Shown one piece after another: positions 4,176 to 56,542 of a stretch of DNA of 64,000 bases. A model generated the notes under the pieces. That model was not told the DNA's origin. It did no database searches and saw only the letters and a list, made by a program, of their open reading frames with translations. The first letter of the stretch is position 1. Every line of letters begins with the position of its first letter. The DNA is from an uncultured Chloroflexia bacterium (lineage in GTDB: Bacteria; Chloroflexota; Limnocylindria; Limnocylindrales; CSP1-4): NCBI GenBank assembly GCA_963837215.1, contig CAWIML010000009.1:295058-359057 (forward strand). Direction: 5' to 3'. Made by a program: the position numbers and the translations under genes.

Positions 4176-4184
4176 TCGTGTGGA

Positions 4185-6523: not shown

Positions 6524-6733
6524 TGGGCCTGCCTCCTCGCGTCCGTGAACCTTCGGTTGCCGGACGTTGGATCGGCCGGCTGCATGGCGTTCCGCGTCGG
6601 GCTCCGGGTCATCATGAACGATGAGCTGCGAGGACGTCTGCCATGAACGTGTAATGCATCTGCATGGTTGATGACGACGATGGCAGGTGCCCGTAGCGGA
6701 CGATACTGGCCCTGATCGCACCGAGGTTCCGAC

Positions 6734-7592: not shown

Positions 7593-7617
7593 CCGGTCCG
7601 TCGACGCCGACGATGAA

Positions 7618-7653
7618 ACACCCGGCGTGGCTGGTGGCCACGCCGGGTGTTCG
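7618..7653. terminator. GC-rich hairpin between convergent genes (candidate bidirectional terminator).
   Basis: acacccggcgtgg / ccacgccgggtgt 13-bp inverted repeat immediately after the YpfJ stop. No strong U-tract follows. Confidence 0.4.
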
Positions 7654-7710
7654 ATGCGATCGACCGTCGGTCGGCTCGCCGACCGCGATCGGAGTGGGAG
7701 TGGCAGGGGC

Positions 7711-9558: not shown

Positions 9559-10512
9559 TCAGATCCAGCGTTTGACGCGGGCCACGCTCAGGATGGCCAG
9601 CGCGACACCGACCATCACGCCGACGACGATCATGAAGGCGCGCCCATCGTCGAAGATCGGCAGGTCGAAGTTCATGCCCATGACACCCGCCAGGACCGCC
9701 GCCGGCAGGAACATGGCCGACAGGACGGTCAACGTCTGGATCGCCCGATTCGAGCGCTGACCGGTGCGGGCCATAAGGATGTCGAAGGAGCCGAGCAACA
9801 GCTCTCGGGCGTTCTCTGCGGCAGCCATGGTCTGGCGCAGCCGATCGATGAGGCCCGGCCATGGGCGACCGAGCTCCTCGTGGAGCTCGAAATCGGGTCG
9901 AGCGAGCGCCGCGAAGGCCGCCTCATGCGGGGCCAGTGCGCGACGCACGAATGCGATCCGGCGGCGGAGCCGGATGATCGGCTCCAGCAGCTCGTCGCCG
10001 GTCGCCCGCAGCGCACGGTCGTCGAGTTCATCGATCTCACGCACGACATCCTCGATCCAGGCACCGTAGCCCGTCAGCACCCGGTCGACGATGATGCCCA
10101 TGAATTGTCCGGCGGCGAGCTTGCCGAGGCGGGAGTCGCCAGGGTGCTCCTCGTCAAGACCGCTCAGCGCCGGGACCTCGTCTCGATGCACGGTCACGAC
10201 GAAGTCGCGACCGACGAGGAGGTCGATCTCAGCCACGCGCAGATCCTCGTCGCCGATGACCGCAGCCATGGTCAAGTGGACGTAGCTCGGATGGAGCCGG
10301 ATCCGCGCTCGTCCGAGGCGGCGGCTCAAGTCATGCATCGTCTCGGGTAGCCAGTCGAAGACGCCGGCGAGTCGCTCCATGTCGTGATCGTCGGGCGCCA
10401 GGACGTCGATCCACAGGATCTCGTCGTTAGCGAGCCCTGCGAGGGGGTGATCGTCGACGGCTACATCACGATCCTCCCCGGCCGCGTCGAAGAGGCGAGC
10501 CTCGATGGGCAC
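9559..10512 (-). CDS. corA: CorA-family Mg2+/Co2+ transporter.
   Basis: GMNF signature plus two C-terminal TM helices; 317 aa. Confidence 0.9.
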   Translation of the reverse strand: MPIEARLFDAAGEDRDVAVDDHPLAGLANDEILWIDVLAPDDHDMERLAGVFDWLPETMHDLSRRLGRARIRLHPSYVHLTMAAVIGDEDLRVAEIDLLVGRDFVVTVHRDEVPALSGLDEEHPGDSRLGKLAAGQFMGIIVDRVLTGYGAWIEDVVREIDELDDRALRATGDELLEPIIRLRRRIAFVRRALAPHEAAFAALARPDFELHEELGRPWPGLIDRLRQTMAAAENARELLLGSFDILMARTGQRSNRAIQTLTVLSAMFLPAAVLAGVMGMNFDLPIFDDGRAFMIVVGVMVGVALAILSVARVKRWI

Positions 10513-10795
10513 CGCTCAGCCGCGCGCCAGGGCCAGCAGGCAGGCAGCGATGAATGCCACGAGGGCGACGCCGTACTCGACGGCCTTCATGCTGGCGTCC
10601 TGCAGGAGCGGTCCAGGCCTGTGGCTCTCGGCGTAGGTTCATCGCTCGTCGGCCCGCCAGGAGCCGAGCCCGCAGAGCCTCGAGCAGGACATCGGCGTGG
10701 CGACGCTCATCCGCGAGCAACCCGGCAAGGAGCTCTTCTTGGCCGTCACGCGCGCGTCGCCGATAGTCGTCGATCGCTTCGAGCTCGGAGACCAA
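10466..10795 (-). CDS. Small ORF with a TTG start and a ferritin-like helix (ExxH); possibly a truncated or frame-shifted remnant.
   Basis: A strong AGGAGGAGG RBS precedes the TTG at 10795. Only ~45 aa look like protein (VSELEAIDDY...ADERRHADVLLEAL). The tail overlaps the corA start and looks non-coding. Confidence 0.25.
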   Translation of the reverse strand: MVSELEAIDDYRRRARDGQEELLAGLLADERRHADVLLEALRARLLAGRRAMNLRREPQAWTAPAGRQHEGRRVRRRPRGIHRCLPAGPGARLSGAHRGSPLRRGRGGS

Positions 10796-11059
10796 TGCGT
10801 GCCTCCTCCTGGTTTTGTGCGCGCGGGTGCGCGGTAGCCGATCGTGCGGCGCCGGCTATTCCGTGGCGACGACAACCGGGCGTGCAGGTCTTGCGGGCCC
10901 ATCGCAACTGCCTGACGGCGGTTCGCCGAGCTCATCCGCGGCTGCAAGCCAGATGCAATGCGACGCTTGATGGCGGTGGCACCGATGTCGCCACCGCCAC
11001 CACAACCTTGGTTCGTGGCCCATCCCGGGCCGTCCGATCGAGGGAAGTGGAGGAAACCC

Positions 11060-11341
11060 ATGAGCATCATCGCCTGGTTGGTCCTCGGCGCCATCGCCGG
11101 GTACCTGGCCGGGTTCCTCGTCAAGGGTGACGAGGGCCTCGGAGTCATCGGTCACGTCGTGCTGGGCATCGTCGGCGCGCTCGTCGGCGGGTTCCTGGCC
11201 GGGGTCCTGCTGGGGACGGATCCGATCGACGGTGCGCTCGACCTGAGCTCGATCGTCGCCGCCACCATCGGCGCCATCATCGTCGTCCTCGTGGCGTCGA
11301 TGGTCATGCGCACGACCCGAACGGGCAGCGGTCCGATCTGA
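11060..11341 (+). CDS. GlsB/YeaQ/YmgE-family stress-response membrane protein.
   Basis: MSIIAWLVLGAIAGYLAG...GHVVLGIVGALVGGFLAG. A GGAGGA RBS lies 5 nt upstream of the ATG at 11060. Confidence 0.85.
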   Translation: MSIIAWLVLGAIAGYLAGFLVKGDEGLGVIGHVVLGIVGALVGGFLAGVLLGTDPIDGALDLSSIVAATIGAIIVVLVASMVMRTTRTGSGPI

Positions 11342-11354
11342 CCCAGCATCACAG

Positions 11355-11387
11355 GGGCGCCCGTCGACTCTCTCGACGGGCGCCCTC
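11355..11387 (+). terminator. Stem-loop after the glsB-like gene.
   Basis: gggcgcccgtcga / tcgacgggcgccc 13-bp inverted repeat. Confidence 0.4.
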
Positions 11388-11406
11388 AGCCATGCTCGGA
11401 GGCAAG

Positions 11407-11889
11407 ATGTCCACCTTCAGCAAGACCATCCATGTCGAGGCGCCACTGCGCGCCGTCTACAACCAATGGACGCAGTTCGAGACGTTCCCCCTCTTCATGA
11501 AGGGGGTCGAACGCGTCGTACAGGTCGACGATCGGACGCTCGATTGGACGGCCTCGATCGCCGGCCAGTCCCGCACGTGGCGCGCTCGCATCACGGAGCA
11601 GCTGCCTGACCGCATCGTGGCCTGGGAGTCGATCGACGGCGCCCGCAACGCCGGGTCCGTCCGATTCCAGCAGGTCAGCGAGGACGTCACGATGGTGACG
11701 CTGGAGCTCGATGTCGAGCCGGACGGGCTGATCGAAGCGGCCGGCGATGCCCTCGGTCTCGTGCAGGGTCAGGTCGAGGCAGACCTGGACCAATTCAAGG
11801 CGTTCATCGAGGCCCGCGGTCAGGAAACCGGCGCGTGGCGCGGAGCCGTCGGCGGTGCGCCCGTTGCGACGACACGCAGGGACTCCTGA
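11407..11889 (+). CDS. SRPBCC-family protein (polyketide cyclase/dehydrase, START-like).
   Basis: A GGAGG RBS precedes the ATG at 11407. The sequence pattern (TIHVEAPLRAVYNQWTQFETFPLFMKGVERV...) is typical of the family. Confidence 0.75.
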   Translation: MSTFSKTIHVEAPLRAVYNQWTQFETFPLFMKGVERVVQVDDRTLDWTASIAGQSRTWRARITEQLPDRIVAWESIDGARNAGSVRFQQVSEDVTMVTLELDVEPDGLIEAAGDALGLVQGQVEADLDQFKAFIEARGQETGAWRGAVGGAPVATTRRDS

Positions 11890-12029
11890 TCGATCCCGGC
11901 GGGCGCGCGGCTCGGCTGTGAGCCTCCCGCAACCTCCCGCCCTCCGAACGGGAGTGGACCGAAACACCCAACGCCACACAGTGACCGCAGGCCGGCAGCC
12001 GCCGACCGAGAGGCAAAGGAGCGCATGGC

Positions 12030-12296
12030 ATGGACGAGGTCAAGAAGACCTATCGCGAGGCCGAGGAGACGGCCAAGGAGACGTGGCGCGGCATCGACGG
12101 CACGAGTCCTGAGGACAGCGTCAGGAACGCCGGCGACGACGTCGCCAAGCATGCCGGCAATGCCGCCGACAAGGTCGACGACGCTGCAGATGATCTCGGC
12201 GATCACGTCCGAAGCGGGATCGACGACCTGGGCGACAAGGTCGACGATGTCGCCGATGACGTCGGCGACGCCTTGGATCCCAAGCCCACCCGCTGA
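12030..12296 (+). CDS. Small acidic CsbD-like stress protein (88 aa).
   Basis: An AAGGAG RBS lies 8 nt upstream of the ATG at 12030. Repeated Asp-rich D-x-G-D-x-V and (K/D)VDD motifs. Confidence 0.55.
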   Translation: MDEVKKTYREAEETAKETWRGIDGTSPEDSVRNAGDDVAKHAGNAADKVDDAADDLGDHVRSGIDDLGDKVDDVADDVGDALDPKPTR

Positions 12297-28915: not shown

Positions 28916-29083
28916 GCGTGGACTCCTTGTCGTCGTGCTGGTCGTATCGATCGCGTCCGTCGCCCGAAGGTCGGGCAGGCAGACGCCTGACTCAGCGCGA
29001 GGGTCGTCTCGTCACCTGACGGAGTCCTGAATCGAACGGATCTCCTGGTGCCCACGTCAGTGGACGCGGACGACCGAGGCCGG

Positions 29084-32000
29084 TCAGGCCTCGACGGGGG
29101 TCGACGTCGTCGAGCCGCTTCGGGCCCTGGCGGTCGACGGACGGGCGAGCTCCGCATCGAGGCGCCCGAGGTACGGCTTGGCGCCGACCGACTCGAAGAT
29201 GGCCCGAGCGTCCTCGCCGGCGGCGCGAGCCTCGGACACCTGCGGTCCGACCGCATGGATGAAGGTCAGCCCGCACATGGCCTGCTCGAAACCGGCGCCG
29301 ACCTCCGCAAATCCGCGAAGCGCTGCGACGTAGCCGTTGTTCGCTTCGGCGATGTCGCCTTCGAGTGCGCTCAGGCTGGCGTGCGCCTCGAGTCGGCTGG
29401 CCTTCGCGAAGAGCGTGACGTCGGGGTCGGCATCCAGCCGCTCCATCGCTGTCCGTAACGCCGACCGAGTCGCCCAGCCAGGTCGCCGAGCGCACCGCCA
29501 GCGCAAGGAGGTAGGACGCGAGCGTGGGTGACGCCGCGACGCTGCGAAGGTAGGCGTCGTACGCCTCCGCGTAGGCACCGAGGCTGAAGGCGAGGTCGCC
29601 GCGCAGCCAGTCCATGACCGCCTGATAGAACGGGTCGGCCAGATCGGCGAGCAATGACTCGAGCCGATGCAGCTGGTCGTCGATCGGTTCGCCCCGGGCG
29701 ATGCGGAAGAGCAGAGCGATGCTCAAGGCGCGATGCTCGTCGGCCGGTTCGGACGTCTCGTCGATGATCGCCTGCACCCGACCCAGCGCGAGGTCCCATT
29801 CGATGCCAGCCGAGTACCGGTAGTAGGCGGAGGAGCCGATCAGCCAGGTCGTCATCGGACGATTGCCGGACCGCTGGCCGAGCTCGATGCCGGCCTCGGC
29901 CTCGGCGAGGCCGCGCATCAGGTCATCGCCGGTGAGTGAACTCGCAAGGTTGTTGCGGGCGCGAAGCTCGGCGGCCAGGAAGCCGCCCTGTTGGGCCGTC
30001 CGGACGGCGGCTTCATGGATCGCCACGGCTTCGCGGCGCCGGCCGACATAGCTGAGCGCCGAGGCCTTGTTGTTGAAGGCTTCCGCGATGAGCTCCTCGA
30101 GGTCGAGCCGCTCGGCGATGGGGAGGGCCTGGTCGGCGACTTCGATCGCACGCGCCGGCTGGTCGTTGCGGAAGAGGGCCCGCGAAAGGTTGGTCAGGAT
30201 CGTGGCTCGGACGTCCTCATGGCCGCCAGCGGGCAGAGCCTTCAGGCCGGCCTCGAGTACGGGCACTGCGTCGCCGACTCGGCCGGCATCGATGAGCGTC
30301 TGCCCGAGTTGCGCGCTCGCGCGTCCTGCACCCGCGGCGTCTCCAGATCCGTCGTACCGCTCGAGCGCCTGCCGCGCGAACGCCTCCGACCGCTCGTAGT
30401 GCCCGGCGAAGTCCGCCGAGCGCGCGCTCTGGAGCAGCAACTCCGCCTGCTCCATCGGGTCCGTGGTGACCTGCAGCGCTTGCTGGGCGAAGGCGACAGC
30501 CTGGTCATGGGCACCAAGGCCTTCAGAGCGTTCGGCGGCGCCACGAAGGGCGAGCCGCGCCTGGGCGGCGACCGTGTCGGCCTCTTCGCCCGGCGTCGAG
30601 GCCTCGAAGGCGGCCAGGTAGTGGCCCGCCTGCACGCCCGCCAGCTCGTCCTCGCCGATCGACTCGATGAAACGTGCCGCGGCGATGTGGCGTGCGCGGC
30701 GGTCGCGGCGACCGAGCGTGCCGTAGGCGACCTCGCGGATGAGCGACTGGACGAACCCGTACTGGCCACGCTCCGGCGATCGGGGGTCGGATTCGACCTC
30801 GAGCAACTCCCGACGGACAAGGGCGCGCAGTCGCGGCTCGAGCTCCTCAGGGCCGGCGCCGTTGACGGCTGTCAGACCGGCCAGCGTGAAGACCTGCCCG
30901 AGCACCGACGCGTCCTGCAGGATGGTGCGATCGACGGGCTCGAGCGCGTCGAGGCGGGAGGCGATCAGCGACCGCAGCGTCTCGGGAATGGCCAGGGTCC
31001 CCAGGTCGCCGACCGGCCGGTAGCGGTCGTCGACACGCTCCAGGCGTCCGTCTGAGACGAGGGCGCGGACCGTCTCGACGGCGTACAGGGGCATGCCGTC
31101 AGCCCGCGCCAGGATCGCCTTGACGGCGCTCTCCGGGAGGCCGGGAACAAAACCCGCCAGGAGCTCGCGCATCGCCTGCGTCGGAGAGCGGCTCGAGGGC
31201 CAGCGACGTGAAGTGGCGCGTGCCCGATCCCCAGTCCGGCCGCCTGTCGAAGAGCTCGGGCCGGGCAAGGGTGACCACCAGGATCGGCACGCCCTTGGAC
31301 CATTCGAGCAGCTTGTCGATGAAGTCGAGCAGGCCGCTGTCGGCCCACTGGAGGTCCTCGAAGAGGAGGATGGTCGGCCCCCGCTCGGCGATGCGCTCGA
31401 AGAAGATGCGCCAGGCGGCGAACAGCATGTCCCGACCGCCTGGCGGGGGCGGTTCGAGGCCCAGGAGGGTCAGCAGCGCAGGCTCGACCCAGCGCTGGTC
31501 GTCGGCCCCCGGAACGTACTCGGCCACGGTGGCGGCGATGCGCTGGCGGGTCGTGGCCTCGTCGTCGGTCTCCGCCAGGCCCGCCCGCCGGCGGACCATC
31601 TCGCCCAGCGCCCAGAAGGTGATGCCCTCGCCGTATGCGGGTGAGCGCCCGCGGTGCCAGTAGACGTTCTCGAGGATGCCGTCGATGTACTTCTCGAGCT
31701 CCCAGGCCAGCCGGCTCTTGCCGATGCCGCCCGGCCCACTGATCGAGACGAGCCTGGCTCTGCGCTCGCGACCGACGGCGGCGAGGGCGTCCTTGAGCAG
31801 ACGGAACTCCTCGTCACGGCCGACGAACGGCGGTTCTGGCATGTCCGATCGCCCGTGGCCGCCGCGCTGGGCGACGACCCGTAACGCTCGCCATGCCTGG
31901 ACCGGGCTGGCCTTGCCCTTGAGGAGCTGGTCGCCGGCCTCTTCGAAGGCGATGGCCGACGAAGCAGCCCGCTGGGTCGCCTCGCCGACCAGGACGGTCC

Positions 32001-32685
32001 CGACCGGGGCCATCGATTGCAGGCGGGCTGCGGTGTTGACGAGGTCGCCTGCGACCATGCCCTCGCTCGTCGCGCCGAGTGTCACCGCAGCCTCGCCGGT
32101 CAGCACGCCGGCCCGCGCCTGGATGCCGGGCCCGAGCGCCTGGACCGCATCGACAAGATCGAGTGCGGCGCGGACGGCCCGCTCGGCGTCATCCTCCCGG
32201 GCCACGGGCGCGCCCCAGACGGCCATGACCGCGTCGCCGATGAACTTCTCGACGGTACCGCCGTATCGCCCGATGACGTCGCGCCCCAGATCGAAGTAGG
32301 CCGAGAGTGTCTCGCGGACCTCCTCCGCGTCGCGACCCTCGGCGAACGGTGTGAAGCCCACGAGGTCGGCGAAGAGGACGCTGACCAAACGCCGCTCCGC
32401 GACGGCAGGGCTCAGGCCCGCAGGTGCGCCTCTCGAAACACCCGGCGGAGCCGCACCGGCGCCGGGACCCGATGACCCGGTCAGCGGCGTGGCGCATTCG
32501 CTGCAGAACTTGGCGGTCGCGCCGTTGACCGTCCCGCACGCTGGACAGGCGACCGCGAGTCGTGTCGCGCACTCGGAACAGAACTTCGCCCCGACCGTGT
32601 TCTCCGTGCCGCAGTTCGAGCAGATCACCGATGACCTCGCAGCGTCCCCCAGACAACGGGGACGTGGATCGCGAGCGTACCCGAC
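29084..32685 (-). CDS. Giant signalling protein, paralogue 1 (~1200 aa): double zinc ribbon, class-III adenylyl/guanylyl cyclase domain, STAND/AAA ATPase (P-loop), TPR array. No LuxR HTH is visible. Two frame changes (~31180, ~29465).
   Basis: CSNCGTEN...CSEC...CPACG...CSEC ribbons. Cyclase motifs LVSVLFADLVGFT and GDAVMAVWGAP. P-loop ISGPGGIGKSRLA, Walker B ILLFEDLQWAD, then TPR-like helical repeats to the C-terminus. The pieces lie in ORFs 31099..33273, 28992..31268 and 29084..29578. Confidence 0.8.
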
Positions 32686-32761
32686 GTCGCCATGCGATGC
32701 GAGTGGTTCAGGCTCGCCCGAGGTGCACGGGCTGGCGCCAGCCCGTACCGGCACGATCGGC

Positions 32762-33685
32762 TCAGCCGACGAGCGACGTCGCCAGCCCCTTCCGTGCCAG
32801 GCGCTCCTCGAACCGCTGAGCGGCGACCTCGAGCGCGTCGAGGTGCTCGGCGAGACGCCGTCGTGCATCCTCGGCCGCGGCATCGAGACCTTCGAGCTCG
32901 AAGATCCGCCAGTGCCGGAGGATGGGCATGAGCACTTCGTCGCGGTGGACCCGGAGGTTGTAGATGCCGGCGGTCGCCATCTGCGCCGCCTTGCGCATGA
33001 AGCCCGGGATGCCGGCGCCCGGCATCTGGAACCGAAGGACCTCGTCGACGATGGCTCGCACCGTAGCCGACGGCTGCAGCTTGATGGCGGCCGAGAGCAC
33101 ATCGCGGTAGAAGACCATATGCAGGTTCTCGTCGGCCGCGATGCGGACCATGATCCTGTCCGCCACGGGGTCATTCGAGTAGCGGCCCGTGTTGCGGTGC
33201 GAGATCCGCGTCGCCAGCTCCTGGAACGCCACGTAGGCCAGCCCGTGAAGCGTGTCCGGCGCGCCGAGGTCATAGCCCTGTTGGAGCTGCGTCATGCGGC
33301 CACGCTCGAGCATCACGGGGTCGATGTTGCGGGTCACCGTCAGGTAATCGCGGAGGACGATGGCATGGCGACCCTCCTCTGCCGTCCAGCGCCCGACCCA
33401 GGTGATCCAGGCGCCGTCGCCGCGCCCGAACATGCCGTGGATCAGACGGTGGTAGCTGGGCAGGTTGTCCTCGGTCAGCAGGTTGACCTCGAAGGCAGTC
33501 TGGGCGACGCCGGTCAGGCGCGCCTGATCGGGCGTCCAAGGCTCGGTATCGAAGTCGCGACCCATGCGGTAGGGGATGAAGTCGTGCGGGAACCACTCGA
33601 CGGCGACGCCGAGGTGGCGATCCAGCAGCCGTCCAGCTTCGGGCTCGAGCTCGATCAGCAGGGCGGCCTCGTCGTAGTCGGGCAT
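32762..33685 (-). CDS. Acyl-ACP desaturase (DesA-like soluble di-iron fatty-acid desaturase, ferritin-like).
   Basis: The 307-aa C-terminal part of ORF 32762..35197, starting at MPDYDEAALLIELEP. Di-iron motifs EENRH-like (TEDNLPSYHRL, TAEEGRHAIVL, AADENLHMVFY). Confidence 0.85.
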   Translation of the reverse strand: MPDYDEAALLIELEPEAGRLLDRHLGVAVEWFPHDFIPYRMGRDFDTEPWTPDQARLTGVAQTAFEVNLLTEDNLPSYHRLIHGMFGRGDGAWITWVGRWTAEEGRHAIVLRDYLTVTRNIDPVMLERGRMTQLQQGYDLGAPDTLHGLAYVAFQELATRISHRNTGRYSNDPVADRIMVRIAADENLHMVFYRDVLSAAIKLQPSATVRAIVDEVLRFQMPGAGIPGFMRKAAQMATAGIYNLRVHRDEVLMPILRHWRIFELEGLDAAAEDARRRLAEHLDALEVAAQRFEERLARKGLATSLVG

Positions 33686-33848
33686 AACAGCCTCATGGGA
33701 TGTCCGGATGACCACGTCGGCGTTCGACGAGCGGCCGGACCGACCAAATGTACGCCTGAACGGGCCCGAGCGCCTCTGAGCGTGTGCAAGCCTGCATCGA
33801 GCGACCCGATCGGCGACCGGCAGGTCAGGCTCGCGCCGAGTCGCCCGG

Positions 33849-36800
33849 TCAGGTGCGCTCGCCGGCCTCGGCGATCGGTGCTGTCGATCTGCGGGGCGAG
33901 GTCGATCTCGTCGGAGACCCGGCGACCGCCGCGTCCAGCCAGGCCAGGTACGGGGCGGCGTCGACGCGCTCGAAGATCGAGCGTGCCTCGGCGACGAGAG
34001 CGGCGCCGACCACCTTCGCGCCCAGGATCCGGACCGTGTCGAGGATGGTCCGCGCGACATTGAAGTCGTGGCCGAACGTCCGGTACGTTGCGAGCACGTC
34101 GTGGAGCGCTGCCATCGCCTCCTCGACGCGGTCCTCGAGGGCCGCCAGCCAACCGCGGGCCCGCAGCCGCTCGATCCGCTGGGTGGGCGAGTCGGCAGTC
34201 GGCAGCGCATCGAGTTCGTCGACCAGGCGCCGGAGCTCATCGACATCTCGCAGTCGGACGGCGCTCGCCGACGCGTCCGCCAGTCCCCACGGGGCGTGGC
34301 CACTGAACCCGGCCGCCGTGCGGCGTTGCTCCGCCAGAGCCGTTCGGTCGTCCCCGGCCAGGATGGCGCGGTCGGCGAGCAACACGTGCACCTGGTTCGC
34401 CACCTGCGGATCACCGAGCTGCCTGGCGGCCAGCTTGACGCGCTCGAGCGTCTCGTCGCATGGATCGCCCCTCGCCATCTGTATCGCCGCCATGGCCGTG
34501 CGAATACCCACCTCGTCGCCCAGGCCACGTGCGTCGGCGATGGCGTCTGCCCCTTGCGCCAGCGCGGCATCCCAGTCGTCGGCGCCTGCCCAGCTCGCGG
34601 TGATGACGAACTGCAGCTGCCAGTTAGCCATCTGGCGATTGCCGTAGCGGCGCGCGATCTCGAGCGTCTCTCGGAACATCGACGTGGCGCGTTGGGGCTC
34701 GCGGTCCCAGAGCGTCGCGGCAAGGTTTGCCCGAGCCCGGAGCTCGGACGCGACGAAGCCACCGCGGGCAGCGATCTCGACCGCGGCCTGCTGCAGGGCG
34801 AGCCCTTCCTGGATGCGCCCGAGGTCGGCGAGTGAGGAGCCCTTGTTATTGAAGGCGTCAGCGATGAGCTGGTCGAGGCCGAGTCGTTCCGCGATCGGCA
34901 GACCCTGGTCGGCGGCGGCGACGGACTTGATCGGGTCGTCCATGCGCATGTAGCCTCGAGACAAGATGATCGCCAGGCGCGCGCGGGCCTCGTCGGGCGC
35001 CTCGGCCGGCAGTTCTGCGAAGGCGGGCTCGAGGATCTCGACGGCCGCCTCCGTCCTCGCCCCGTTGAGGAGCACTTCGCCCAGCCGGGCGGTCGCCCGC
35101 GCAACGTCGACGGCGTCGCCACCCTCGCGGAAGGCTTCGATGGCGTCCCGCGCCATGGCCTCTGCGAGCGAGTGGTCGCCGGCGTCCGAGGCGGCACTCG
35201 CCGCCATCTCGAGGAGCTGCCCGCGCTCGGCTGGCAGGCTGACGACGGTGAGGGCCTGCGTCAAGTAGGTCACGCCTTGGTCATTGGCGCCCAGGTCGAT
35301 AGCGCGTTCGGCGGCCGCCCGGAGTGCGATGCGCGCCTGCGCGCCGACCGCCTCGGCTTCCTCACCGGCGCTCGAGGCCTCATGGGCGGCGAGGTAGTGG
35401 CCGGCCAGCGCGCCGGCCAGCTCGTCGTCACCGAGCGCCTCGAAGTAGCGCGCTGCGGCAAGGTGCCGGGCTCGCCGGTCAGGACGGGCGAGGGTGCCGT
35501 AAGCGACTTCGCGGATGAGCGACTGGACGAAGCGGTACTGTCCCCGCTCCGGCGAACGAGGATCCGCCTCGACCTCGAGCAGCTCCCGACGTACCAGGCC
35601 GCGAAGGTGCGGCTCCAGGTCGTCGACAGACAGGTCCGCCGCCGGCCCGGTCGCGACGGCCGTCAGCCCGGCCACGGTGAACGCCCGGCCGAGCACCGAC
35701 GCGTCCTGGAGGAGAGCCCGGTCGACGCGTCTCGAGCGCGTCGAGGCGCGAGGCGATGAGCGACCGGAGCGTCTCCGGGATGGCCAGGGTGCCCAGCTCG
35801 CCGACTGGCCGATACGCGTCACCGACGCGCTCCAGGCGCCCGTCGGCGACGAGCGAGCGGACGGTTTCCACGGCGTAGAGCGGGACGCCATCGGCCCTGG
35901 CGAGGATCGTCGCGACCGCTGGCTCCGGCAACTCGGGAACGAAGCCGGCAAGCAGCTCGCGCATGGCCTCGGCCGAGAGCGGATCGAGGGCCATCGAGGT
36001 CGCGTGGCGGGTGCCCGTCCCCCAGTCCGGTCGGCGGTCGAAGAGCTCCGGCCGTGCCAGGGTCACGACCAGGATGGGCACGCCCTTGGACCACTCGAGG
36101 AGCTGCTCGATGAAGTCGAGCAGGCCGCTGTCGGCCCACTGGAGGTCCTCGAAGAGGAGGATGGTCGGCCCGCGCTCCGCGATGCGCTCGAAGAAGATGC
36201 GCCAGGCGGCGAAGAGGACGTCCCGGCCACCGGGCGGCGGCGGCTCGAGGCCCAGGAGGGTCAACATCGCGGGTTCGATCCAACGCTGGTCCTCGGCGTC
36301 GGGTACGAACTCGGCCACGGTCGACGAGATGCGCAGACGCGTCGACGCTTCGTCGTCGCCCTCTGCCAGGCCGGCCCGTCGTCGGACCATCTCGCCCAGC
36401 GCCCAGAAGGTGATGCCCTCGCCGTAGGACGGCGACCGCCCGCGGTGCCAGTAGATGTCCGCTGACACGCCGTCGATGTACTTCTCGAGCTCCCAGGCGA
36501 GGCGGCTCTTGCCGATGCCGCCTGGACCCGAGATGGACACCAGCCGCGGCCGTCGATCCCGGCCGATGGCGCTCACGGCGTCGCGGAGGATGCGGAAATC
36601 GTCCTCCCGCCCGACGAATGGCGGCTCCGGCATGTCCGAGCGCCCATACCCGCCCCGCTGGGCTACCACGCGCAGCGCCCGCCAGGCCGGGACCGGGCTC
36701 GTCTTGCCCTTGAGAAGCTGATCGCCGGCGGGCTCGAAGGCGATGGCGGCGGCGGCCGCGCGCTGGGTCGCCTCGCCGACGAGGACGCTGCCCGGCGGCG

Positions 36801-37472
36801 CGATCGACTGGAGGCGGCTGGCCGTATTGACCAGATCACCGGCGACCATGCCCTGATTGGTGGCACCGAGGGTGACCGCGGCTTCGCCGGTCAGGACACC
36901 GGCCCGCGCCTGGATACCGGGGCCGAGCGACCGGACGGCGTCGACGAGCTCGAGGGCCGGCGCGGACAGCGCGTTCCGCGTCGTCCTCGCGCGCGACCGG
37001 TGTGCCCCAGACGGCCATGACGGCGTCGCCGATGAACTTCTCCACCGTGCCGCCGTAGCGGCCGATGACGTCAGAGGCCAACTCGAAGTAGCGCGACAGC
37101 GTCTCGCGTACGTCCTCCGCGTCGCGCTCCTGGGCGAACGTCGTGAAGCCGATCAGATCGGCAAAGAGGACACTGACCAGACGGCGCTCCGCCACTGGGG
37201 TGGCCGACCCGGTGGGCGGTGCAGCGCCTCGACCGATGGCGGCCACGGACGGTTCGCTGCCGGCTACGTCGGCGTCGATGGGCGTGCCGCATTCGCTGCA
37301 GTACTTCGCAGTCGGCGCGTTCGCGGTGCCACAGGACGGACACAGCAGCGCGCATCTGCACGCCGCACTCGGAGCAGAACTTGGCACCGAGTGCGTTCTC
37401 CGTCCCGCAGTTGGCGCAATTCACCGACGGCCCTCCAGCAGTTGCCCGGATCGGATCGCGAGCGTACCCGAC
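33849..37472 (-). CDS. Giant signalling protein, paralogue 2 (zinc ribbons, adenylyl cyclase, STAND ATPase, TPR); at least three frame changes (~37345, ~36958, ~35737).
   Basis: Same architecture and roughly 70-80% protein identity to paralogue 1 (LVSVLFADLIGFT, GDAVMAVWGTP, ISGPGGIGKSRLA, ILLFEDLQWADSGLLDFIEQLLEWSKGVPILVVTLARPELFDRRPDWG). The pieces lie in ORFs 37071..37643, 36836..37387, 35479..36849 and 33849..35951. Confidence 0.8.
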
Positions 37473-37497
37473 GGCGGAGCTGGAGGGTAGGGCCGTG

Positions 37498-39021
37498 TCA
37501 TGCCTCGGCGTTGATCTCCCGGGTGCGCCGTGCCACGTACGCGTCGAGCGCTTCGCCCACGGCCGGGTCCATAGGTGGCGGCCGCGCCTCGGCCAGGAGC
37601 TGCTTCCAGATCCGATTGGCGCGCTGCGTCGCCGTCTGGGCACCGTCCTCCTGCCAGGTCTCGAAGTTGCGCCAGTCCGAGAGGAGCGGGCGGTAGAAGG
37701 CGGTCTCGTAGCGCGCCATCGTGTGGGCGGTCCCGAAGTGGTGCCCGCCTGGCCCGACCTCGGCCATCGCCTCGAGCCCGAGCGTGCCCTCGTCGACGAC
37801 CATCGGCTGCAGCACCTCGGCCATCATCTGCAGGATCTCGGCGTCGAGGATGAGCTTCTCGTAGGAGGCCGTCAGGCCGCCCTCCAACCAGCCGGCACCC
37901 TGATACAGGAGGTTGACGCCACCGAGGATGGCGCCCCAGACGGCCATCTCCGACTCGTAGGCTGCCTGGGCGTCGACGACGTTGGAGGCGGTCACGTTCG
38001 AGGAGCGCCAAGGGAGACCGTATCGGCGTGCCAGCTGTCCCGTTGCGAAGGCGGCCTTGACGTACTCGGGCGTGCCGAAGGCCGGGGCGCCGGAGCGCAT
38101 GTCCACGTTGGAGGTGAAGCCGCCATAGACGACCGGCGCACCCGGTCGGGCGAGCTGGGTCAGGGCGACCATGAAGAGCGCCTCGGCGTTCTGCTGGGCA
38201 AGGGCGCCGGCGAGGGTGGCCGGGGTCATGGCGCCCGCCAGCGTGAATGGCGTGGCGACCACAGCCTGGCCGTGGATGGCCATCTCGATGAGCCCGTCTG
38301 ACATCGGGCCGTCGAGGCGCAGCGGGGTATTGGAGTTGATGATCGTCATCAGGCTCGGCCGCTCGAGGAGCCCGTCGCGATCGACGCCCAAGGCGAGACA
38401 ACTCATCTCGATGGCGTCGTCGACCACGACGCGCCCGGAGCCCAGGCACTGCCACGACTTGTCGAGCTCGGCGATGAGGATGCGGTACATCTCGAGGTGC
38501 CGAGTGGACACCGGCAAGTCGGTCGGCTCGAGGGGACCGCCGCCCTCCTGGTGCACGATGTCAAGGGCGCCGATGAGCCGCACGTAGTCGCGGAAGTCGG
38601 CGGCGTTGCCGGCCCGACGCCCGCGGTCGAGGTCGGTCACGAAGGCCGGCCCCCCGACGGCCCCGAAGACGACGTCGGCACCGCCGAACGTCAAGGCGCG
38701 CGCCGGGTTGCGAGCGTGGAGCGTGAAGGTCGAAGGCGCGCGCGCGACCAGCGCCTCGACCTGCGCGCCCTCGAGTCGCACGCGCCGTACGGCCCGGTCC
38801 ACGCTGGCTCCCGTCGATGCCAGGAGGTCGAGGGCGCGGTCGCCCATGACCTCGAAGCCGATCTCCTCGAGGATCCGGAGGCTGGCCCGATGGATGGTCT
38901 CGACCTGTTCGGGATCGAGGATCTCCACCGGGCGAAATGGATTGACGAGTCGGCGCCATGGCGGTCGGGCGAGGCCCCCGGCCTCGCGCCGGCCGCGCCG
39001 GCGGGCGCCCTCAGCCGTCAC
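37498..39021 (-). CDS. MttB-superfamily methyltransferase (trimethylamine / glycine-betaine:corrinoid methyltransferase-like); non-pyrrolysine type.
   Basis: 507-aa TIM-barrel methyltransferase recognised along its full length (...GGGPLEPTDLPVSTRHLEMY..., ...FGTPEYVKAAFATGQLARRYGLPWRSSNV...). No in-frame amber codon. Confidence 0.85.
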   Translation of the reverse strand: MTAEGARRRGRREAGGLARPPWRRLVNPFRPVEILDPEQVETIHRASLRILEEIGFEVMGDRALDLLASTGASVDRAVRRVRLEGAQVEALVARAPSTFTLHARNPARALTFGGADVVFGAVGGPAFVTDLDRGRRAGNAADFRDYVRLIGALDIVHQEGGGPLEPTDLPVSTRHLEMYRILIAELDKSWQCLGSGRVVVDDAIEMSCLALGVDRDGLLERPSLMTIINSNTPLRLDGPMSDGLIEMAIHGQAVVATPFTLAGAMTPATLAGALAQQNAEALFMVALTQLARPGAPVVYGGFTSNVDMRSGAPAFGTPEYVKAAFATGQLARRYGLPWRSSNVTASNVVDAQAAYESEMAVWGAILGGVNLLYQGAGWLEGGLTASYEKLILDAEILQMMAEVLQPMVVDEGTLGLEAMAEVGPGGHHFGTAHTMARYETAFYRPLLSDWRNFETWQEDGAQTATQRANRIWKQLLAEARPPPMDPAVGEALDAYVARRTREINAEA

Positions 39022-40705
39022 GGTCGCGTGCCAGGTAGGCCTCAGCGATGCGGTCGGCCGTCACGCGCGCGTCATAGGTGCCGGTGATGGCCAGCAGGAA
39101 GGCGTCGCGGTCGAGCGCCTGCAGCTCGACGTCGGTCAACGCCGTGACGGTCGCCGTACGCGGCACCGCGCGCATCAGCGCGATCTCCCCGAAGGCGTCG
39201 CCGCGCTCCAACTGGCGCAGCTGGCGCCCGTCCTGGCTGACGGCCAGCCGACCCCGTTCGACGACATAGAAGCGGTCGCCGACATCCCCCTGCCTGATGA
39301 CATCGCTGCCGCCTGCGTGGAGGATCGGTACCAGCGCGCGGGCGGCCGCTTCCAACGCCGGCGCCGGCACCGGGGCGAAGAGCGGCAGGCTCCGAAGCAG
39401 TCGGATCTCGAGCGTCGGTACACGGATGCGCCCCTCGGCGCGGCCCAGTCGGAACCAGGCGACGACCGCCCCGATCGGCAGCACAGCCGCGATCACGGCA
39501 AAGGTCGCCGGGAGGCCGATCCGTTGGACGAGGATGGCGGGCAGGATGGAGCCGACGGCGAGACCGGCCATGGCGAAGCCCTCGACGAGCCCGAAGACGC
39601 CAGCCAGGACATCATCAGGCACGATGCGTTGGAGGAGGGTCCGGCCGGCGACGTCGACGAGAGCAAGGCTGACGCCGCAGACCACCATCAGGCCCGCCGC
39701 CGCAGTCGCCGACTGGGCGAGTGGGGCCGCCAGCAGACCGAGTCCGAAGACGACGGCACCCAGCGCGAGCCACGGCGAGAGTCGGCCTCGACCAACCAGG
39801 ACGAGGGTCAGCGCGCCGCCGACCACGCCGCCGAGCCCGACGGCAGCCGTCAGGTAGCCGGCCCCGGCGCCTCCGATCTCGAGGACCTCGATGGCCAGCA
39901 GCACGAGCAGGACGTCGATGGCACCGATCATGACGTAGCGGGCGCCGAGCATGATGACCAGCAGCCGCTGGTCGGCATCGCGGCTGACCTGTCGGATGCC
40001 CTCGAAGAAGGAAGGCTGAGGCGCCGGGCGCGATCCGACCCGCGGGACATCGGGCGTGGCCGGGTCGCTGGCCGTTCGTTCGGGAGCGACGTCGGCCGCG
40101 CGGTGCGGTCGGAGCCGAAACGCCAGGAGCGTGGACAGGCTCACGAGGACGGCGCACACGATGAAGACCTGGCCCGGCTGTCCCGCGACCAGCATCAGCC
40201 CGGCCAGGATGGGCCCGATGAGCACGCCGAGCCCGTCGATGATGGTCGAGACGGCGTTGCCGGCCGTGACCTCCTGGGCGGTGTCGGCATAGGCGGGCAC
40301 GAGTGCCGCCTGGAGCGGCCGGGCGATGGTCAGGCTGCAGGAGTAGGCGACGGCGATCAGATAGACGAGCGCCGCGGGCAAGCCGATCAGCATCGCCGCC
40401 CCGACGGCCAGCGTCGTCAGTGCCAGCGCACCGTAGCCGGCCACGAGCAGGCGATCCCGACGATATCGATCACCGAGGCTGTTGACGAGCGGCGCGAAGA
40501 AGGCGGCCGGCACCAGCTGGCCGAACGCCACCAACCCGACCGAGGCTGGACCGGTCGCGTCGTAGGCGTAGACCAGGAGCGCGACCCAGGTTCCGTATTC
40601 GAGGATCGAAAAGCCCAGATACGCGAGAGCCATCCGGCGGAGGTCGTGGTTGCGGAGCACCGCGACGAAGGCACGCAGGGACGCACGGAGGCGGCTGGCG
40701 GGCAT
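39011..40705 (-). CDS. MFS transporter fused to a C-terminal cyclic-nucleotide-binding (cNMP/CAP-type) domain.
   Basis: Twelve TM MFS body followed by LRSLPLFAPVP...GDRFYVVERGRLAV...GDAFGEIAL...RTATVTALTDVELQALDRDAF. Confidence 0.8.
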   Translation of the reverse strand: MPASRLRASLRAFVAVLRNHDLRRMALAYLGFSILEYGTWVALLVYAYDATGPASVGLVAFGQLVPAAFFAPLVNSLGDRYRRDRLLVAGYGALALTTLAVGAAMLIGLPAALVYLIAVAYSCSLTIARPLQAALVPAYADTAQEVTAGNAVSTIIDGLGVLIGPILAGLMLVAGQPGQVFIVCAVLVSLSTLLAFRLRPHRAADVAPERTASDPATPDVPRVGSRPAPQPSFFEGIRQVSRDADQRLLVIMLGARYVMIGAIDVLLVLLAIEVLEIGGAGAGYLTAAVGLGGVVGGALTLVLVGRGRLSPWLALGAVVFGLGLLAAPLAQSATAAAGLMVVCGVSLALVDVAGRTLLQRIVPDDVLAGVFGLVEGFAMAGLAVGSILPAILVQRIGLPATFAVIAAVLPIGAVVAWFRLGRAEGRIRVPTLEIRLLRSLPLFAPVPAPALEAAARALVPILHAGGSDVIRQGDVGDRFYVVERGRLAVSQDGRQLRQLERGDAFGEIALMRAVPRTATVTALTDVELQALDRDAFLLAITGTYDARVTADRIAEAYLARDRDG

Positions 40706-40764
40706 GCCGTAAGCATCGCGTATCCGGCCACGGCTGCACACCTCCTGGCGGTACCCTCTTCGGC

Positions 40765-41223
40765 GTGACGATCCAGAAGGACCACGTCTCGTGGGACGGT
40801 CTGGCCGAGATGGTCGGGCGCCTCGCCGAGCAGGTCGGTGGCGGGTACGACGTGATGCTGGTCATCACCCGCGGTGGTCTCGTTCCGGGCGGCATGCTGG
40901 CCTACCGGCTGGGCATCCGGAACATCCTCGTGGCGGCCGTCGAGTACTACGACGAACATGGCCGACCGGGGCCGCACCCGACCTTCCTGCAGTTCCCGGC
41001 GGACCCGTTGCTGCGCGGTCAGCGCGTCCTCGTCGTGGACGAGGTCTGGGACAGCGGCACCACCATCCACGCCGTGACCGAGCGCGTCCGCCAGGCGGGC
41101 GGCGAGCCGACGACCGCGGTCCTGCACTACAAGCCCGTCAGATCGGTCGTGTCGGGCGAGCCTGACCATCACGTGGTCGAGACCGCGAACTGGGTGGTCT
41201 ACCCGTTCAAGGTCGGCGATTGA
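40765..41223 (+). CDS. Type-I purine phosphoribosyltransferase (xanthine/hypoxanthine-guanine PRT-like).
   Basis: PRPP-binding motif VLVVDEVWDSGTT; 152 aa. Confidence 0.8.
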   Translation: MTIQKDHVSWDGLAEMVGRLAEQVGGGYDVMLVITRGGLVPGGMLAYRLGIRNILVAAVEYYDEHGRPGPHPTFLQFPADPLLRGQRVLVVDEVWDSGTTIHAVTERVRQAGGEPTTAVLHYKPVRSVVSGEPDHHVVETANWVVYPFKVGD

Positions 41224-41266
41224 CCGCTCGAGGACGCACCGCGATTGGTACCATGCGCGGCCAGCG

Positions 41267-42238
41267 ATGAAATCGAGCACCGACCTCTTCACGCGCTCGC
41301 CGCACAACCCGATCATCACCGCCGCCGCGCTCCCGTACCCGGCCAACAGCGTCTTCAACCCGGGAGCTGCTCAGGTCGACGGCCAGACGGTCCTCCTCCT
41401 GCGGGTCGAGGATCGGCGCGGCATCTCGCACCTCACGGTCGCGCGCAGCGCGGACGGCTACACCGACTGGACCTTCGACCCCGAGCCCAGCCTGCGCTCG
41501 GCACCCGAGCGCCACCCCGAAGAACTCTGGGGCCTCGAGGATCCACGCGTCACGTGGCTGCCGGATGAAGGCCACTTCGCCATCGCCTACACGGCCTACA
41601 GCCGGCGCGGGCCTCTGGTCTCGCTGGCGACCACGACCGACTTCCGGAGCTTCCGCCGACTGGGTCCGGTGATGCCGCCAGAGGATAAGGACGCGGCGCT
41701 CTTCCCACGCCGCTTCGACGGTCGCTGGCTGCTCGTTCATCGGCCAAGCCCATTGCACGGCAGCGCCAATATCTGGACCTCGGCCTCGCCCGACATGCGT
41801 CACTGGGGCGACCATCGGCTGCTCCTGGAGGCGCGCGACGGCGCCTGGTGGGATGCATCCAAGATCGGCCTCGGGCCGCCACCCCTCGAGACAGCGGAGG
41901 GCTGGCTGATGATGTACCACGGCGTCCACGTCACCGCGGCAGGCGCGCTCTACCGCAGCGGCCTGGTGCTGCTCGACCTGGACGACCCCAGCGTCATCCT
42001 CCATCGGAGCGATGACTGGGTGCTCAGCCCGACGGCACCGTACGAGCGCGCCGGGGACGTGGCCGACGTCGTCTTCCCGTGCGGTTGGTTGCTGGACCCC
42101 GAGGGCGATCTACTGCGCGTCTACTACGGCGCCGCGGACACGTCGATCGCGGTCGCGTCGGCCAGCCTCAGCGAAGTGCTGGACTACCTGCGGGCATGCC
42201 CCGCTCCCGCTCGCCGGGCGCAACTGGATCAGCCGTAG
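41267..42238 (+). CDS. GH130-family glycoside phosphorylase/hydrolase (5-bladed beta-propeller).
   Basis: Typical GH130 sequence (FNPGAAQVDGQTVLLLRVED, WGLEDPRVTWL, GWLMMYHGV, VFPCG). The C-terminus overlaps the convergent glycosidase gene by ~70 nt. Confidence 0.8.
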   Translation: MKSSTDLFTRSPHNPIITAAALPYPANSVFNPGAAQVDGQTVLLLRVEDRRGISHLTVARSADGYTDWTFDPEPSLRSAPERHPEELWGLEDPRVTWLPDEGHFAIAYTAYSRRGPLVSLATTTDFRSFRRLGPVMPPEDKDAALFPRRFDGRWLLVHRPSPLHGSANIWTSASPDMRHWGDHRLLLEARDGAWWDASKIGLGPPPLETAEGWLMMYHGVHVTAAGALYRSGLVLLDLDDPSVILHRSDDWVLSPTAPYERAGDVADVVFPCGWLLDPEGDLLRVYYGAADTSIAVASASLSEVLDYLRACPAPARRAQLDQP

Positions 42239-54539: not shown

Positions 54540-54647
54540 GGACCGCGATAGAGATACCGAAAGGCGCTGCCGCCGCGGGTGAGCGGGCCGCGACCTGAGC
54601 GGAGCCGACGTGCCGCGCGCGGGCCGGCTGCTGTACGAGGAGGAACG

Positions 54648-56542
54648 ATGCTCACGTCCGCACGCGCCCGTCGCTGGCGTCCGGTCCTGATCCTGGCGTC
54701 GCTGGCCGCGATGCTGCTGCCGTCGGCGATCCCTGTCGCCGCCGCGGACCCGGTCATCCTCAAGATCGGGACCGTCCAGGATCTCGACTCGATGAACGCC
54801 TACGAGACCGAGTTCTTCATCGGCTATGAGATCTTCGGCCTCAACTACGACCTGCTCGTGGGCTACGGCCCGAACGCCGAGCCCGCCGCCGGCTTCACCG
54901 AGTCATGGATGCAGGACGGAACGAAGTGGACATTCAAGATCAACCCCGACCTCAAGTGGTCGGACGGCACGCCCGCAACGTCCGAGGACGCGCGCTGGAC
55001 GATCCAGAAGCTGCTCGACGGTCAGGCCGCGGATGGTTACGTGGGGGCCGGTTACCTCGACCCCTACCTGACGTACGCCGGCGTCACGGCCGTCTCCGCA
55101 CCAGACCCGCAGACGCTGGTCATCGAAACCGCGACACCGAATACGCAGATCCTGACCTCATACCTGCCCATCCTGCCCAAGCATGTCTGGGAGACCCGCG
55201 ACATCGGGACCGACGCGAACAAATCCCCGGTCGTCGGCTCCGGCGCCTACCAGACGGCGGAGTGGAAGCCCGGCGAGTACGTCCGTATGGTCCGCAACCC
55301 CCACTACTGGGGTCCGAAGGGATTCGCCGACGAGATCTTCTTCCAGTTCTTCAAAGACGAAGGCGCGATGGTCGAGGCCTTCAAGAACGGCGAGATCGAC
55401 TACGCCCGCAACGTGACCGCGGACCAGTACGAGCAGCTCAAGGGCCTGCCAGACATGGTGACCGTCGAGTCCGCGCTGGCGGCCGAGGCGAACGCCTTCA
55501 CGATGCTCAACTTCAACGGCTACAGCAAGCCCATCGAAGGTGGTGGCGCCTCGACGCTGGCGGTCCAGGATCCTGCCTTCCGCGATGCCCTTGGGTACGC
55601 CATCGACAAGCCGGCACTCGTTGACAAGGTCCTCGGCGGCCACGGGCTCGTCGGCACGACGCACATCCCGCCGGCCATGGCCGGAGGTTTCTGGCACTAC
55701 GAGCCCCAGAACCAGCGGACCTTCGACATCGAGGTCGCCAAGCAAAAGCTCACGGACGCCGGCTACAAGCTCGACGCGAATGGCAAGCGCCTCGACAAGG
55801 AGGGCAAGCCGATCGACCTCAAGATGGTCGTGCCGGACAGCTCCACGAGCTATGCGCAGAGCGCCGAGTTCATCGCCGGCTGGTGGAGTGAACTGGGCAT
55901 CGATGTCACGACCCGGCCTACGACGGGGACACGGTGACCGCCATCGAGTCGCCACCCGAAGCCGACCCGCCCGGCAAGGCCGACTTCGACGTCGGCGTCT
56001 GGAACTGGGGCGGCGACGTCGACCCGAACTCGCTGCTCAACATCCTGACCACCGACTACATCCCCGCCGGCAGCGACACGTTCTTCTCCAACCCGCGCTA
56101 CGACGAGCTGATGATGCTTCAGGGAGCCGAGCCCGATCCGGCCAAGCGCAAGGTCCTGACTGACGAGATGCAGCAGATCATGTACGACGAGGCGCCGTAC
56201 CACGTGCTCTTCTATGACGCGGCCTTGCATGCCTATCGGACGGACAAATTCGGTGGCTGGACCTTGCAACCCGAGGAAGGGGGGCTCCCCTTCTTCGGCT
56301 TCGGTAACCGCAACTACAACTTGTTGACCGCACCCGAACCGGAGGCCACGCCCGCCCCGTCCGACGCCGCTGTTTCGCCGGGTGCCTCGGCGGCGCCGTC
56401 GCCAGGGACAGACGCCGGCACCGGAAGCAGCGACAACACCCCCCTCGTCCTTGGTGGCGCCGCGATCCTGATCTTGATCGGGATCGTCGCCGTGGTGCTC
56501 ATGCGCCGACGCGGCGCGAAGGGCGACGAAGAAGAGGCGTGA
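54648..56542 (+). CDS. ABC transporter substrate-binding protein, family 5 (peptide/nickel, DppA/OppA-like) with a C-terminal TM anchor; one frame change at ~55930.
   Basis: A GAGGAGGAA RBS precedes the ATG at 54648. Signal peptide, SBP_bac_5 body, then ORF 55934..56542 carries the tail ending in LVLGGAAILILIGIVAVVLMRRRG. Confidence 0.8.

Follow-up and report, generated by a model that had tools for sequence, protein, structure and literature searches.

We analysed a 64,000-nt stretch of contig CAWIML010000009.1 (assembly GCA_963837215.1; the whole stretch is called here the window) from an uncultured bacterium of the Limnocylindrales (Chloroflexota). The gene under study encodes a permease of the major facilitator superfamily (MFS) followed, in the same polypeptide, by a cyclic-nucleotide-binding (CNB) domain. 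We lean slightly towards the reading that this protein, named here MFS-CNB, is a secondary transporter of the DHA/EntS-like branch regulated by a cyclic nucleoside monophosphate (cNMP), its cytoplasmic CNB domain being tethered by about ten residues to the last of 12 transmembrane (TM) helices, TM12. Databases and a published survey already contain this architecture, which is common among the Chloroflexota and Actinomycetota of soil; the window protein is a further example of it. The coordinates of the gene, its domains and its neighbours are collected in Table 1.

Architecture of the MFS-CNB protein

The coordinates proposed for the gene in the initial annotation are exact, and they enclose one intact open reading frame (ORF) on the minus strand. 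The uninterrupted frame extends over 39011..40741 (-), its first GTG lying at position 40741. This GTG was considered as the start and dropped for the ATG at 40705, the N-termini of the homologues being decisive: the 564 amino acids (aa) read from the ATG match the closest homologues in length (564-566 aa) and agree with the consensus N-terminus of the family alignment. The translation exhibits a hydrophobic membrane part and then a soluble C-terminal domain. A plus-strand ORF of 720 aa (38606-40768), which overlaps the gene, was rejected as non-coding; its translation is low-complexity text of Arg, Asp and Gly, and the GC content by codon position (0.84 at third positions, GC3) favours the minus strand at this locus. 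An identical protein (P0001) is present in NCBI/ENA, on a 683-kb contig. Upstream, an AGGAGG at 40742-40747 abuts the GTG at 40741; because it lies too far from the ATG at 40705, the mRNA may be leaderless or devoid of a Shine-Dalgarno site. A scan of window positions 32000-42000 for promoters and terminators found nothing.

Both families expected for this protein, MFS_1 and cNMP_binding, were matched by Pfam above their gathering scores. MFS_1 reached 100.4 bits (cut-off 33.4, E 1.2e-28) in two stretches, the membrane half also matching MFS_3, and cNMP_binding reached 64.1 bits (cut-off 27.5, E 1.1e-17) over residues 466-537. Beyond the CNB domain Pfam gives no further match, the polypeptide stopping at residue 564, straight after the alpha-C helix. 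A helix-turn-helix domain of the Crp/Fnr type was found neither with Pfam nor with NCBIfam; the CRP equivalog model gives 16 bits against a cut-off of 266, and over the CNB part only.

The 12-TM permease that had been claimed is borne out by hydropathy and by structure prediction, each of which gives 12 TM helices. The Kyte-Doolittle profile presents 12 hydrophobic segments, six on either side of a hydrophilic loop (residues 199-246). The AlphaFold2 model, built with 76 homologues, exhibits an N-terminal amphipathic helix followed by the 12 TM helices, the last of which extends to residue 426, and has a mean predicted local distance difference test score (pLDDT) of 91 and a predicted TM-score (pTM) of 0.87. 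These values suggest a defined arrangement of the two domains relative to each other, the sole low-confidence part of the model being the disordered central cytoplasmic loop (residues 199-243). Considering that there are 12 TM helices and that the usual topology of MFS proteins is N-in, C-in, both termini lie inside and the CNB domain is predicted to be cytoplasmic.

In the same model, the CNB domain is composed of two N-terminal helices (431-438 and 448-457), a beta-roll (459-532) and the alpha-B and alpha-C helices (533-541 and 544-563). DSSP resolves seven strands of at least three residues within 459-532, which we judged to correspond to an eight-stranded beta-roll. A phmmer search matched the domain to the CNB domains of PKG, PKA, Mycobacterium tuberculosis Pat, SthK and M. 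tuberculosis CRP (E 7e-37 to 1e-10), and Foldseek matched it to the CNB domain of PKG I with a target TM-score of 0.72.

The two motifs on which the annotation had based this domain, GDAFGEIAL and RTATVTA, were found at residues 502-510 and 516-522. The phosphate-binding Arg and Glu, whose conservation it had proposed to check, are present as R516 and E507 and are conserved across the family, as judged from an alignment of 76 homologues (44-92% identity). The segment F505-G506-E507-I-A-L...P515-R516-T517-A518 aligns with the FGE..PR[TS]A signature of the PKG domains. Residues G506, A509, L510, R516 and A518 are invariant among the homologues; T517 is present in 75 of the 76 and E507 in 69, the other seven having Gln. 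Because the cassette is conserved over the whole alignment, the sequence data argue for selection on nucleotide binding.

Domains of the CNB fold that bind different ligands do exist among Crp/Fnr relatives, of which CooA, NtcA and CprK are ligand-divergent examples, and the domain of MFS-CNB could by analogy bind a ligand other than a 3',5'-cyclic nucleotide, or serve only in oligomerisation or localisation. We hold this to be quite unlikely, since such divergent domains are without the canonical cassette. In MFS-CNB, G-E-x-A-L...R-T-A is complete and varies hardly at all in the family, and by sequence the domain is best matched by genuine cAMP- or cGMP-binding domains.

The fusion is widespread. 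A protein search with MFS-CNB gave 1743 proteins at E <= 1e-5 among 8000 candidates scored, and the 120 best of these 1743, which come from independent samples, all carry both PF07690 and PF00027. In addition, a junction query of 205 aa, comprising TM11-TM12, the linker and the CNB domain, was compared with 1.84 billion representatives clustered at 50% identity and returned 460 matches at E <= 1e-30. About 83 of the best 150 representatives align over the entire query in one stretch, located at about residues 340-550 of proteins of about 540-590 aa, and the remaining high scorers are proteins with multiple CNB repeats. Since the junction is retained across divergent members of the family, the fusion implies, at the level of sequence, a functional coupling of the two halves. 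Six longer members of 657-695 aa (P0137, P0138, P0154, P0183, P0238 and P0248) have two matched stretches each, which suggests that in some variants the MFS half is followed by two CNB domains in tandem (MFS-CNB-CNB).

Among species-representative genomes, the close relatives are found in metagenome-assembled genomes (MAGs) of Candidatus Limnocylindrales (Chloroflexota), at 76-92% identity, and the next relatives in Gaiellales, other Actinomycetota and Micrococcales, at 33-45% identity. A cultured carrier is Miltoncostaea oceani SCSIO 61214, on whose megaplasmid the homologue WP_217924937.1 matches MFS_1 and cNMP_binding; its RefSeq name is only "MFS transporter". One Actinomycetota MAG (L017) presents two MFS-CNB paralogues, at 581-2308 and 10527-12266, about 8 kb apart.

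The two cyclase genes of the window (see below) carry probable single-base indels, and in an error-prone long-read assembly an indel might merge two separate genes into one, making the fusion an artefact of annotation or assembly. We give this explanation practically no weight: the same continuous architecture is shared by more than 120 proteins, whose samples and sequencing centres are independent of one another, and is encoded in the finished genome of a cultured strain, and TM12 runs directly into the N-terminal helices of the CNB domain, which leaves no space for a stop and a restart.

Transport type and proposed regulation

The membrane half retains the signature motifs of the superfamily. 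The consensus used was G-x3-D-[RK]-x-G-R-[RK] for motif A and G-x8-G-x3-G-P-x2-G-G for motif C. Motif A is located in the TM2-TM3 loop as G78-D79-R80-Y-R-R83-D-R85, in which R80 is invariant, the acidic residue (Asp or Glu) at position 79 is kept in 74 of the 76 homologues and R85 in 72. Motif B is present as R129-P-x-Q132. Motif C, the antiporter motif of TM5, reads A151-x8-G160-x3-G164-P165-x2-A168-G169; its first and penultimate Gly are replaced by Ala in the window protein, P165 is invariant, and G164 and G160 are found in 74 and 72 of the homologues, respectively. Four nearly invariant acidic residues are embedded in the membrane, namely E36 (TM1), D/E157 (TM5), D264 (TM7) and E375 (TM11).

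By fold, Foldseek places the membrane half nearest to VMAT1/2, VAChT, NorA and SPNS2 (target TM-score 0.75-0.81). In NCBIfam, the closest models were TIGR00900 (DHA3 H+ antiporter, E 3e-25), EntS, a ryptide exporter and Tet(V). When the MFS half alone was searched by sequence against the PDB, no meaningful match to any solved MFS structure was obtained, and in the Foldseek search no solved chain matched both the MFS and the CNB halves. Taken from its motifs and fold, the MFS half looks like an antiporter or exporter coupled to protons, whose solute is possibly cationic.

Direct gating of transport by cAMP or cGMP is plausible and can reasonably be read from the architecture. In the mechanism that we propose, a cytoplasmic cNMP, probably cAMP, would bind the conserved phosphate-binding cassette, and binding would move the alpha-B/alpha-C 'lid' together with the N-terminal helices of the CNB domain. 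This movement would reach the C-terminal bundle of six helices through the short rigid linker, and probably also by way of contacts with the conserved cytoplasmic loops; it could bias that bundle because the domain hangs by a ten-residue linker from the extension of TM12. The rocker-switch cycle would thereby be biased, turning on or off an export coupled to protons; the solute would be small and possibly a cation or an amine. We infer that a cyclic nucleotide binds, and likewise which one it is, the sign of its effect, the substrate and the direction in which this is transported.

Several observations weigh against this proposal. The membrane half scores below every curated NCBIfam transporter cut-off (for TIGR00900, 89.4 bits against 319.6; for EntS, 38 against 324). 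By these scores MFS-CNB belongs to no named curated transporter family, and its subfamily, substrate and direction are therefore read only from motifs and fold similarity. The path of coupling through the linker and the loops is a conjecture. The Thr that follows the cassette Arg is found in cGMP-selective PKG domains too; as Thr occupies this position in the cassettes of both cGMP-selective PKG and cAMP-preferring HCN2, Thr517 does not, on sequence, discriminate cAMP from cGMP. The genomic context, which varies among the homologues, gives no independent pointer to the substrate. Finally, our literature searches for experimental work, biochemical or genetic, on any protein of this class returned only the 2023 review cited below.

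Neighbouring genes and their conservation

On the minus strand, the gene order is MFS-CNB, MttB, cyclase A, the desaturase-like gene and cyclase B (Table 1). Upstream, the divergent phosphoribosyltransferase gene, for which NCBIfam gives weak matches to xanthine/hypoxanthine phosphoribosyltransferases, is separated from the MFS-CNB start by 59 bp (40706-40764), and a GH130 phosphorylase gene lies beyond it.

Table 1 Features of the window discussed in the text, with coordinates in the window
Feature	Coordinates	Strand	Description	Basis
MFS-CNB gene	39011..40705	-	complete; 564 aa; ATG 40705, TGA 39011-39013	ORF list, translation, Pfam
MFS core	39428..40648	-	residues ~20-426; 12 TM helices in two six-helix bundles	hydropathy, AlphaFold2, Foldseek, motifs
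Linker	39398..39427	-	residues 427-436; ~10 residues joining the CNB domain to the extended TM12 helix on its cytoplasmic side; P430 invariant	AlphaFold2, alignment of 76 homologues
CNB domain	39056..39397	-	CAP/PKA type, residues ~437-550; alpha-C runs to residue 563	Pfam, phmmer, AlphaFold2, Foldseek
Phosphate-binding cassette	39140..39202	-	G502-D-A-F-G506-E507-I-A-L...P-R516-T517-A518-T-V-T-A522	alignment of 76 homologues
MttB	37498..39021	-	non-pyrrolysine MttB-family methyltransferase; starts at a GTG, with an 11-nt overlap with the end of MFS-CNB	Pfam MTTB, E 1.8e-190
Cyclase A	33849..37427	-	double Zn-ribbon, class III cyclase, AAA_16, TPR; at least 4 frame pieces	Pfam, tblastn
Desaturase-like gene	32762..~33700	-	acyl-ACP-desaturase type, soluble; between the two cyclases; precedes the cyclase in L002 too	FA_desaturase_2, E 1.7e-61
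Cyclase B	28992..32673	-	paralogue of the same architecture as cyclase A; one frameshift near 31134-31175	Pfam
Phosphoribosyltransferase gene	40765..41223	+	divergent from MFS-CNB	Pfam Pribosyltran, E 3e-15

MttB scores under the cut-off of the NCBIfam trimethylamine equivalog. Its GTG start and the N-terminus VTAEGxRRRGRR are conserved in two relatives of the locus, L002 and L003, whose transporters are 82% and 76% identical to MFS-CNB, respectively. In the window, the genes for the transporter and MttB overlap and no ORF stands between them. In L001 (92% identity), by contrast, a small unrelated ORF intervenes, and L003 has a gap of 440 nt with an ORF; for this reason the overlap in the window is, from the sequence comparison, a derived state. 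The ORF of L001 (about 3870-4180; MPKYLLRASYTQAGAQGL...) encodes about 105 aa and appears GYD-like by eye, and the ORF called in the gap of L003 is at 11734-12141.

The overlap of the MttB start with the transporter stop, on the same strand, might point to a cAMP-gated importer of a quaternary or other methylated amine that feeds MttB in an operon for uptake and demethylation. The succession of MFS and MttB is kept in L002 and L003, a cationic substrate would be in keeping with the conserved acidic residues within the membrane, members of a clade at about 50% identity adjoin genes for an aldehyde dehydrogenase and a class III aminotransferase, and in a further locus (L034) a dimethylglycine-oxidase-like gene is 2.5 kb away. 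We nevertheless consider such an importer unlikely. The adjacency of MttB is limited to relatives with at least 76% identity, the overlap is derived, and neither MttB nor any other recurrent family appears among the 132 nearest ORFs of 18 distant loci. Moreover, the motifs and nearest families of the MFS half are those of exporters and antiporters, and no corrinoid-protein partner for MttB was found among the window genes scanned.

The metal-binding Asp is retained in both cyclases, as is the Lys that specifies adenine (in EKFIGD), at whose position the guanylate cyclase Cya2 (2w01) has Glu; the residue at the second specificity position is Met, which is atypical. The coding frames of the two genes are disturbed. 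The pieces of cyclase A lie in different frames by tblastn, with at least three single-base insertions relative to cyclase B and the catalytic residues intact, and cyclase B has a 1-nt insertion relative to its orthologue in L003, which is in one frame. No catalytic residue is lost despite these insertions. Indels of the long-read consensus are probably their cause, rather than decay into pseudogenes. Elsewhere in the window, an SBP_bac_5 gene (54552-56542, +) ends early, its Pfam match stopping at model position 325 of 368, at the end of the ORF, and an overlapping ORF of 216 aa without a Pfam match follows; this may be another frameshift of the assembly.

Since the neighbouring cyclases are of the adenylate type and cGMP signalling is rare in bacteria, the sequence evidence favours cAMP over cGMP as the local messenger. 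The initial annotation had placed two adenylyl cyclase genes 2 kb from the transporter gene. This is roughly right: cyclase A starts 1.6 kb downstream (at about 37427) and cyclase B 6.3 kb downstream (at about 32673), and both are frameshifted. The local cAMP theme that it saw in them is weak; cyclases adjoin the gene only in close relatives (76-82% identity), and the linkage is not conserved in the 18 distant loci.

The order MFS, MttB, cyclase recurs in L002 and L003, an array which is shared by common ancestry. The same-strand array that further includes the desaturase and the second cyclase was seen again in close relatives within the Limnocylindrales only. In the Pfam census of the 132 ORFs nearest to the transporter in the distant loci, the count of any one family did not exceed three, and Guanylate_cyc ranked outside the 25 commonest families; a similar cyclase was found within 10 kb in only two of these loci (L005 and L008). 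In the same way, when 485 ORFs drawn from 36 loci were clustered all against all, no neighbour was common beyond sub-clades. A conserved module with the cyclase or with MttB was rejected on these two analyses. The cAMP theme is, judged by gene content, lineage-specific at best, and the MFS-CNB gene appears to behave as a self-contained unit, since no neighbour is conserved across the family.

The surroundings of other homologues are diverse. In the clade at about 50% identity (L031-L033), the transporter gene invariably lies between a divergent gene for a 526-aa aldehyde dehydrogenase and a convergent gene for a HAD-type hydrolase (at about 6100-7800 and 9600-10660), and a class III aminotransferase gene is nearby in L031 and L032; these surroundings may hint at an amine-related substrate. 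An unfused MFS gene near the homologue of L032 was considered as a paralogue and rejected, the identity being just 24% over 130 residues. Other homologues adjoin a transketolase gene or genes for a PAS kinase and an EAL regulator, and still others adjoin unrelated genes.

In M. oceani (L037; NZ_CP064357.1, 4085-7620 and 11722-12327), the homologue overlaps an upstream gene for an MBL-fold hydrolase by 4 nt, a gene for a GAF-domain protein precedes that of the hydrolase, and a metallophosphoesterase gene is located 4 kb downstream of the homologue. The MBL, GAF and metallophosphoesterase folds include cNMP phosphodiesterases and sensors, and the surroundings in L037 may constitute a different local cNMP module.

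These genes bear on a further explanation, in which MFS-CNB is a self-regulated exporter of cyclic nucleotide, the CNB domain sensing cAMP and the MFS half extruding it, in a homeostatic loop with the neighbouring cyclases. The MFS half is of the exporter type, the gene forms a same-strand array with two adenylate-type cyclases in the window lineage, and the homologue of M. oceani is translationally coupled to the MBL-fold hydrolase, with the GAF-domain protein and the metallophosphoesterase near. We regard this explanation as extremely doubtful, because a translocation pathway with four conserved acidic residues is ill suited to the anionic cAMP and the linkage to cyclases is not conserved across the family.

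Known systems and meaning for the family

MFS transporters fused to CNB domains (CNBD), PAS domains and UspA domains are mentioned in a 2023 review, which cites Willson et al. 2019 (PMC10710835). The review presents the MFS-CNBD proteins as presumed, 'plug-and-play' regulatory fusions and implies that none has been characterised (PMC10710835). According to it, the class of Willson, Dalzell, Chapman & Thomas (2019; Microbiology 165:419) combines, as MFS-CNB does, an MFS half and a C-terminal CNB domain in one polypeptide (PMC10710835). Theirs is a bioinformatic survey; the protein described here comes from an uncultured member of the Limnocylindrales.

The DHA-type H+ antiporters EntS, DHA3 (TIGR00900), NorA, VMAT1/2 and VAChT resemble MFS-CNB in the 12-TM fold, in motifs A-C and in the intramembrane acidic residues but, unlike it, are without a CNB domain. 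In M. tuberculosis, Rv3239c and Rv3728 are reportedly composed of an MFS permease, a cNMP-binding domain and an NTE/patatin-like esterase domain, in about 1050 aa, an architecture said to have been described by McCue, McDonough & Lawrence in 2000. On this architecture, they share with MFS-CNB the permease followed by a C-terminal cNMP-binding domain, while the window protein is without the esterase domain. Both are listed as MFS efflux pumps (PMC6300501).

Among secondary-active carriers, the sperm Na+/H+ exchanger SLC9C1 is described as having a voltage sensor and a CNBD (PMC10620091). It is, like MFS-CNB, a secondary-active carrier with a fused cytoplasmic CNBD, and constitutes a precedent for modulation by cyclic nucleotide of a carrier rather than a channel (PMC10620091). 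It differs from MFS-CNB in its CPA/NhaA-type fold, its eukaryotic origin and the extra voltage-sensing domain. The bacterial cyclic-nucleotide-gated K+ channels SthK and MloK1 likewise have a C-terminal CNB domain on a membrane transport module, and their CNB domains match that of MFS-CNB (E 1e-9 to 1e-11); they differ in being tetrameric six-TM pore channels with a C-linker. With CNG and SthK channels, Foldseek aligned the CNB part only (query TM-score 0.20-0.21, root-mean-square deviation >22 A), and MFS-CNB, whose membrane part has an MFS fold, does not fall in the channel class.

As a sequence finding, MFS-CNB adds one example to a recorded architecture and would not surprise a specialist. 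The boldest proposal for the family, which we deem very improbable, is that of a self-sensing efflux valve, in which the CNB domain would measure cAMP and the MFS half would extrude cAMP or a signalling amine controlled by cAMP. If true, the valve would be a post-translational cAMP homeostat in soil Chloroflexota and Actinomycetota, coupled in this lineage to the STAND-type adenylate cyclases encoded next to the transporter. A milder reading, for and against which we find the balance about even, is that MFS-CNB would be the first MFS carrier demonstrated to be gated by a second messenger. Among bacterial secondary transporters, post-translational control by such a messenger is documented for cyclic di-AMP (c-di-AMP), acting on CBS or RCK domains; to our knowledge, control of an MFS carrier by cAMP has not yet been shown. 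Because the family is abundant, its two-domain layout clean, its model confident and a homologue available from a cultured strain (WP_217924937.1), MFS-CNB offers a convenient system for studying how a CNB domain biases a rocker-switch transporter.

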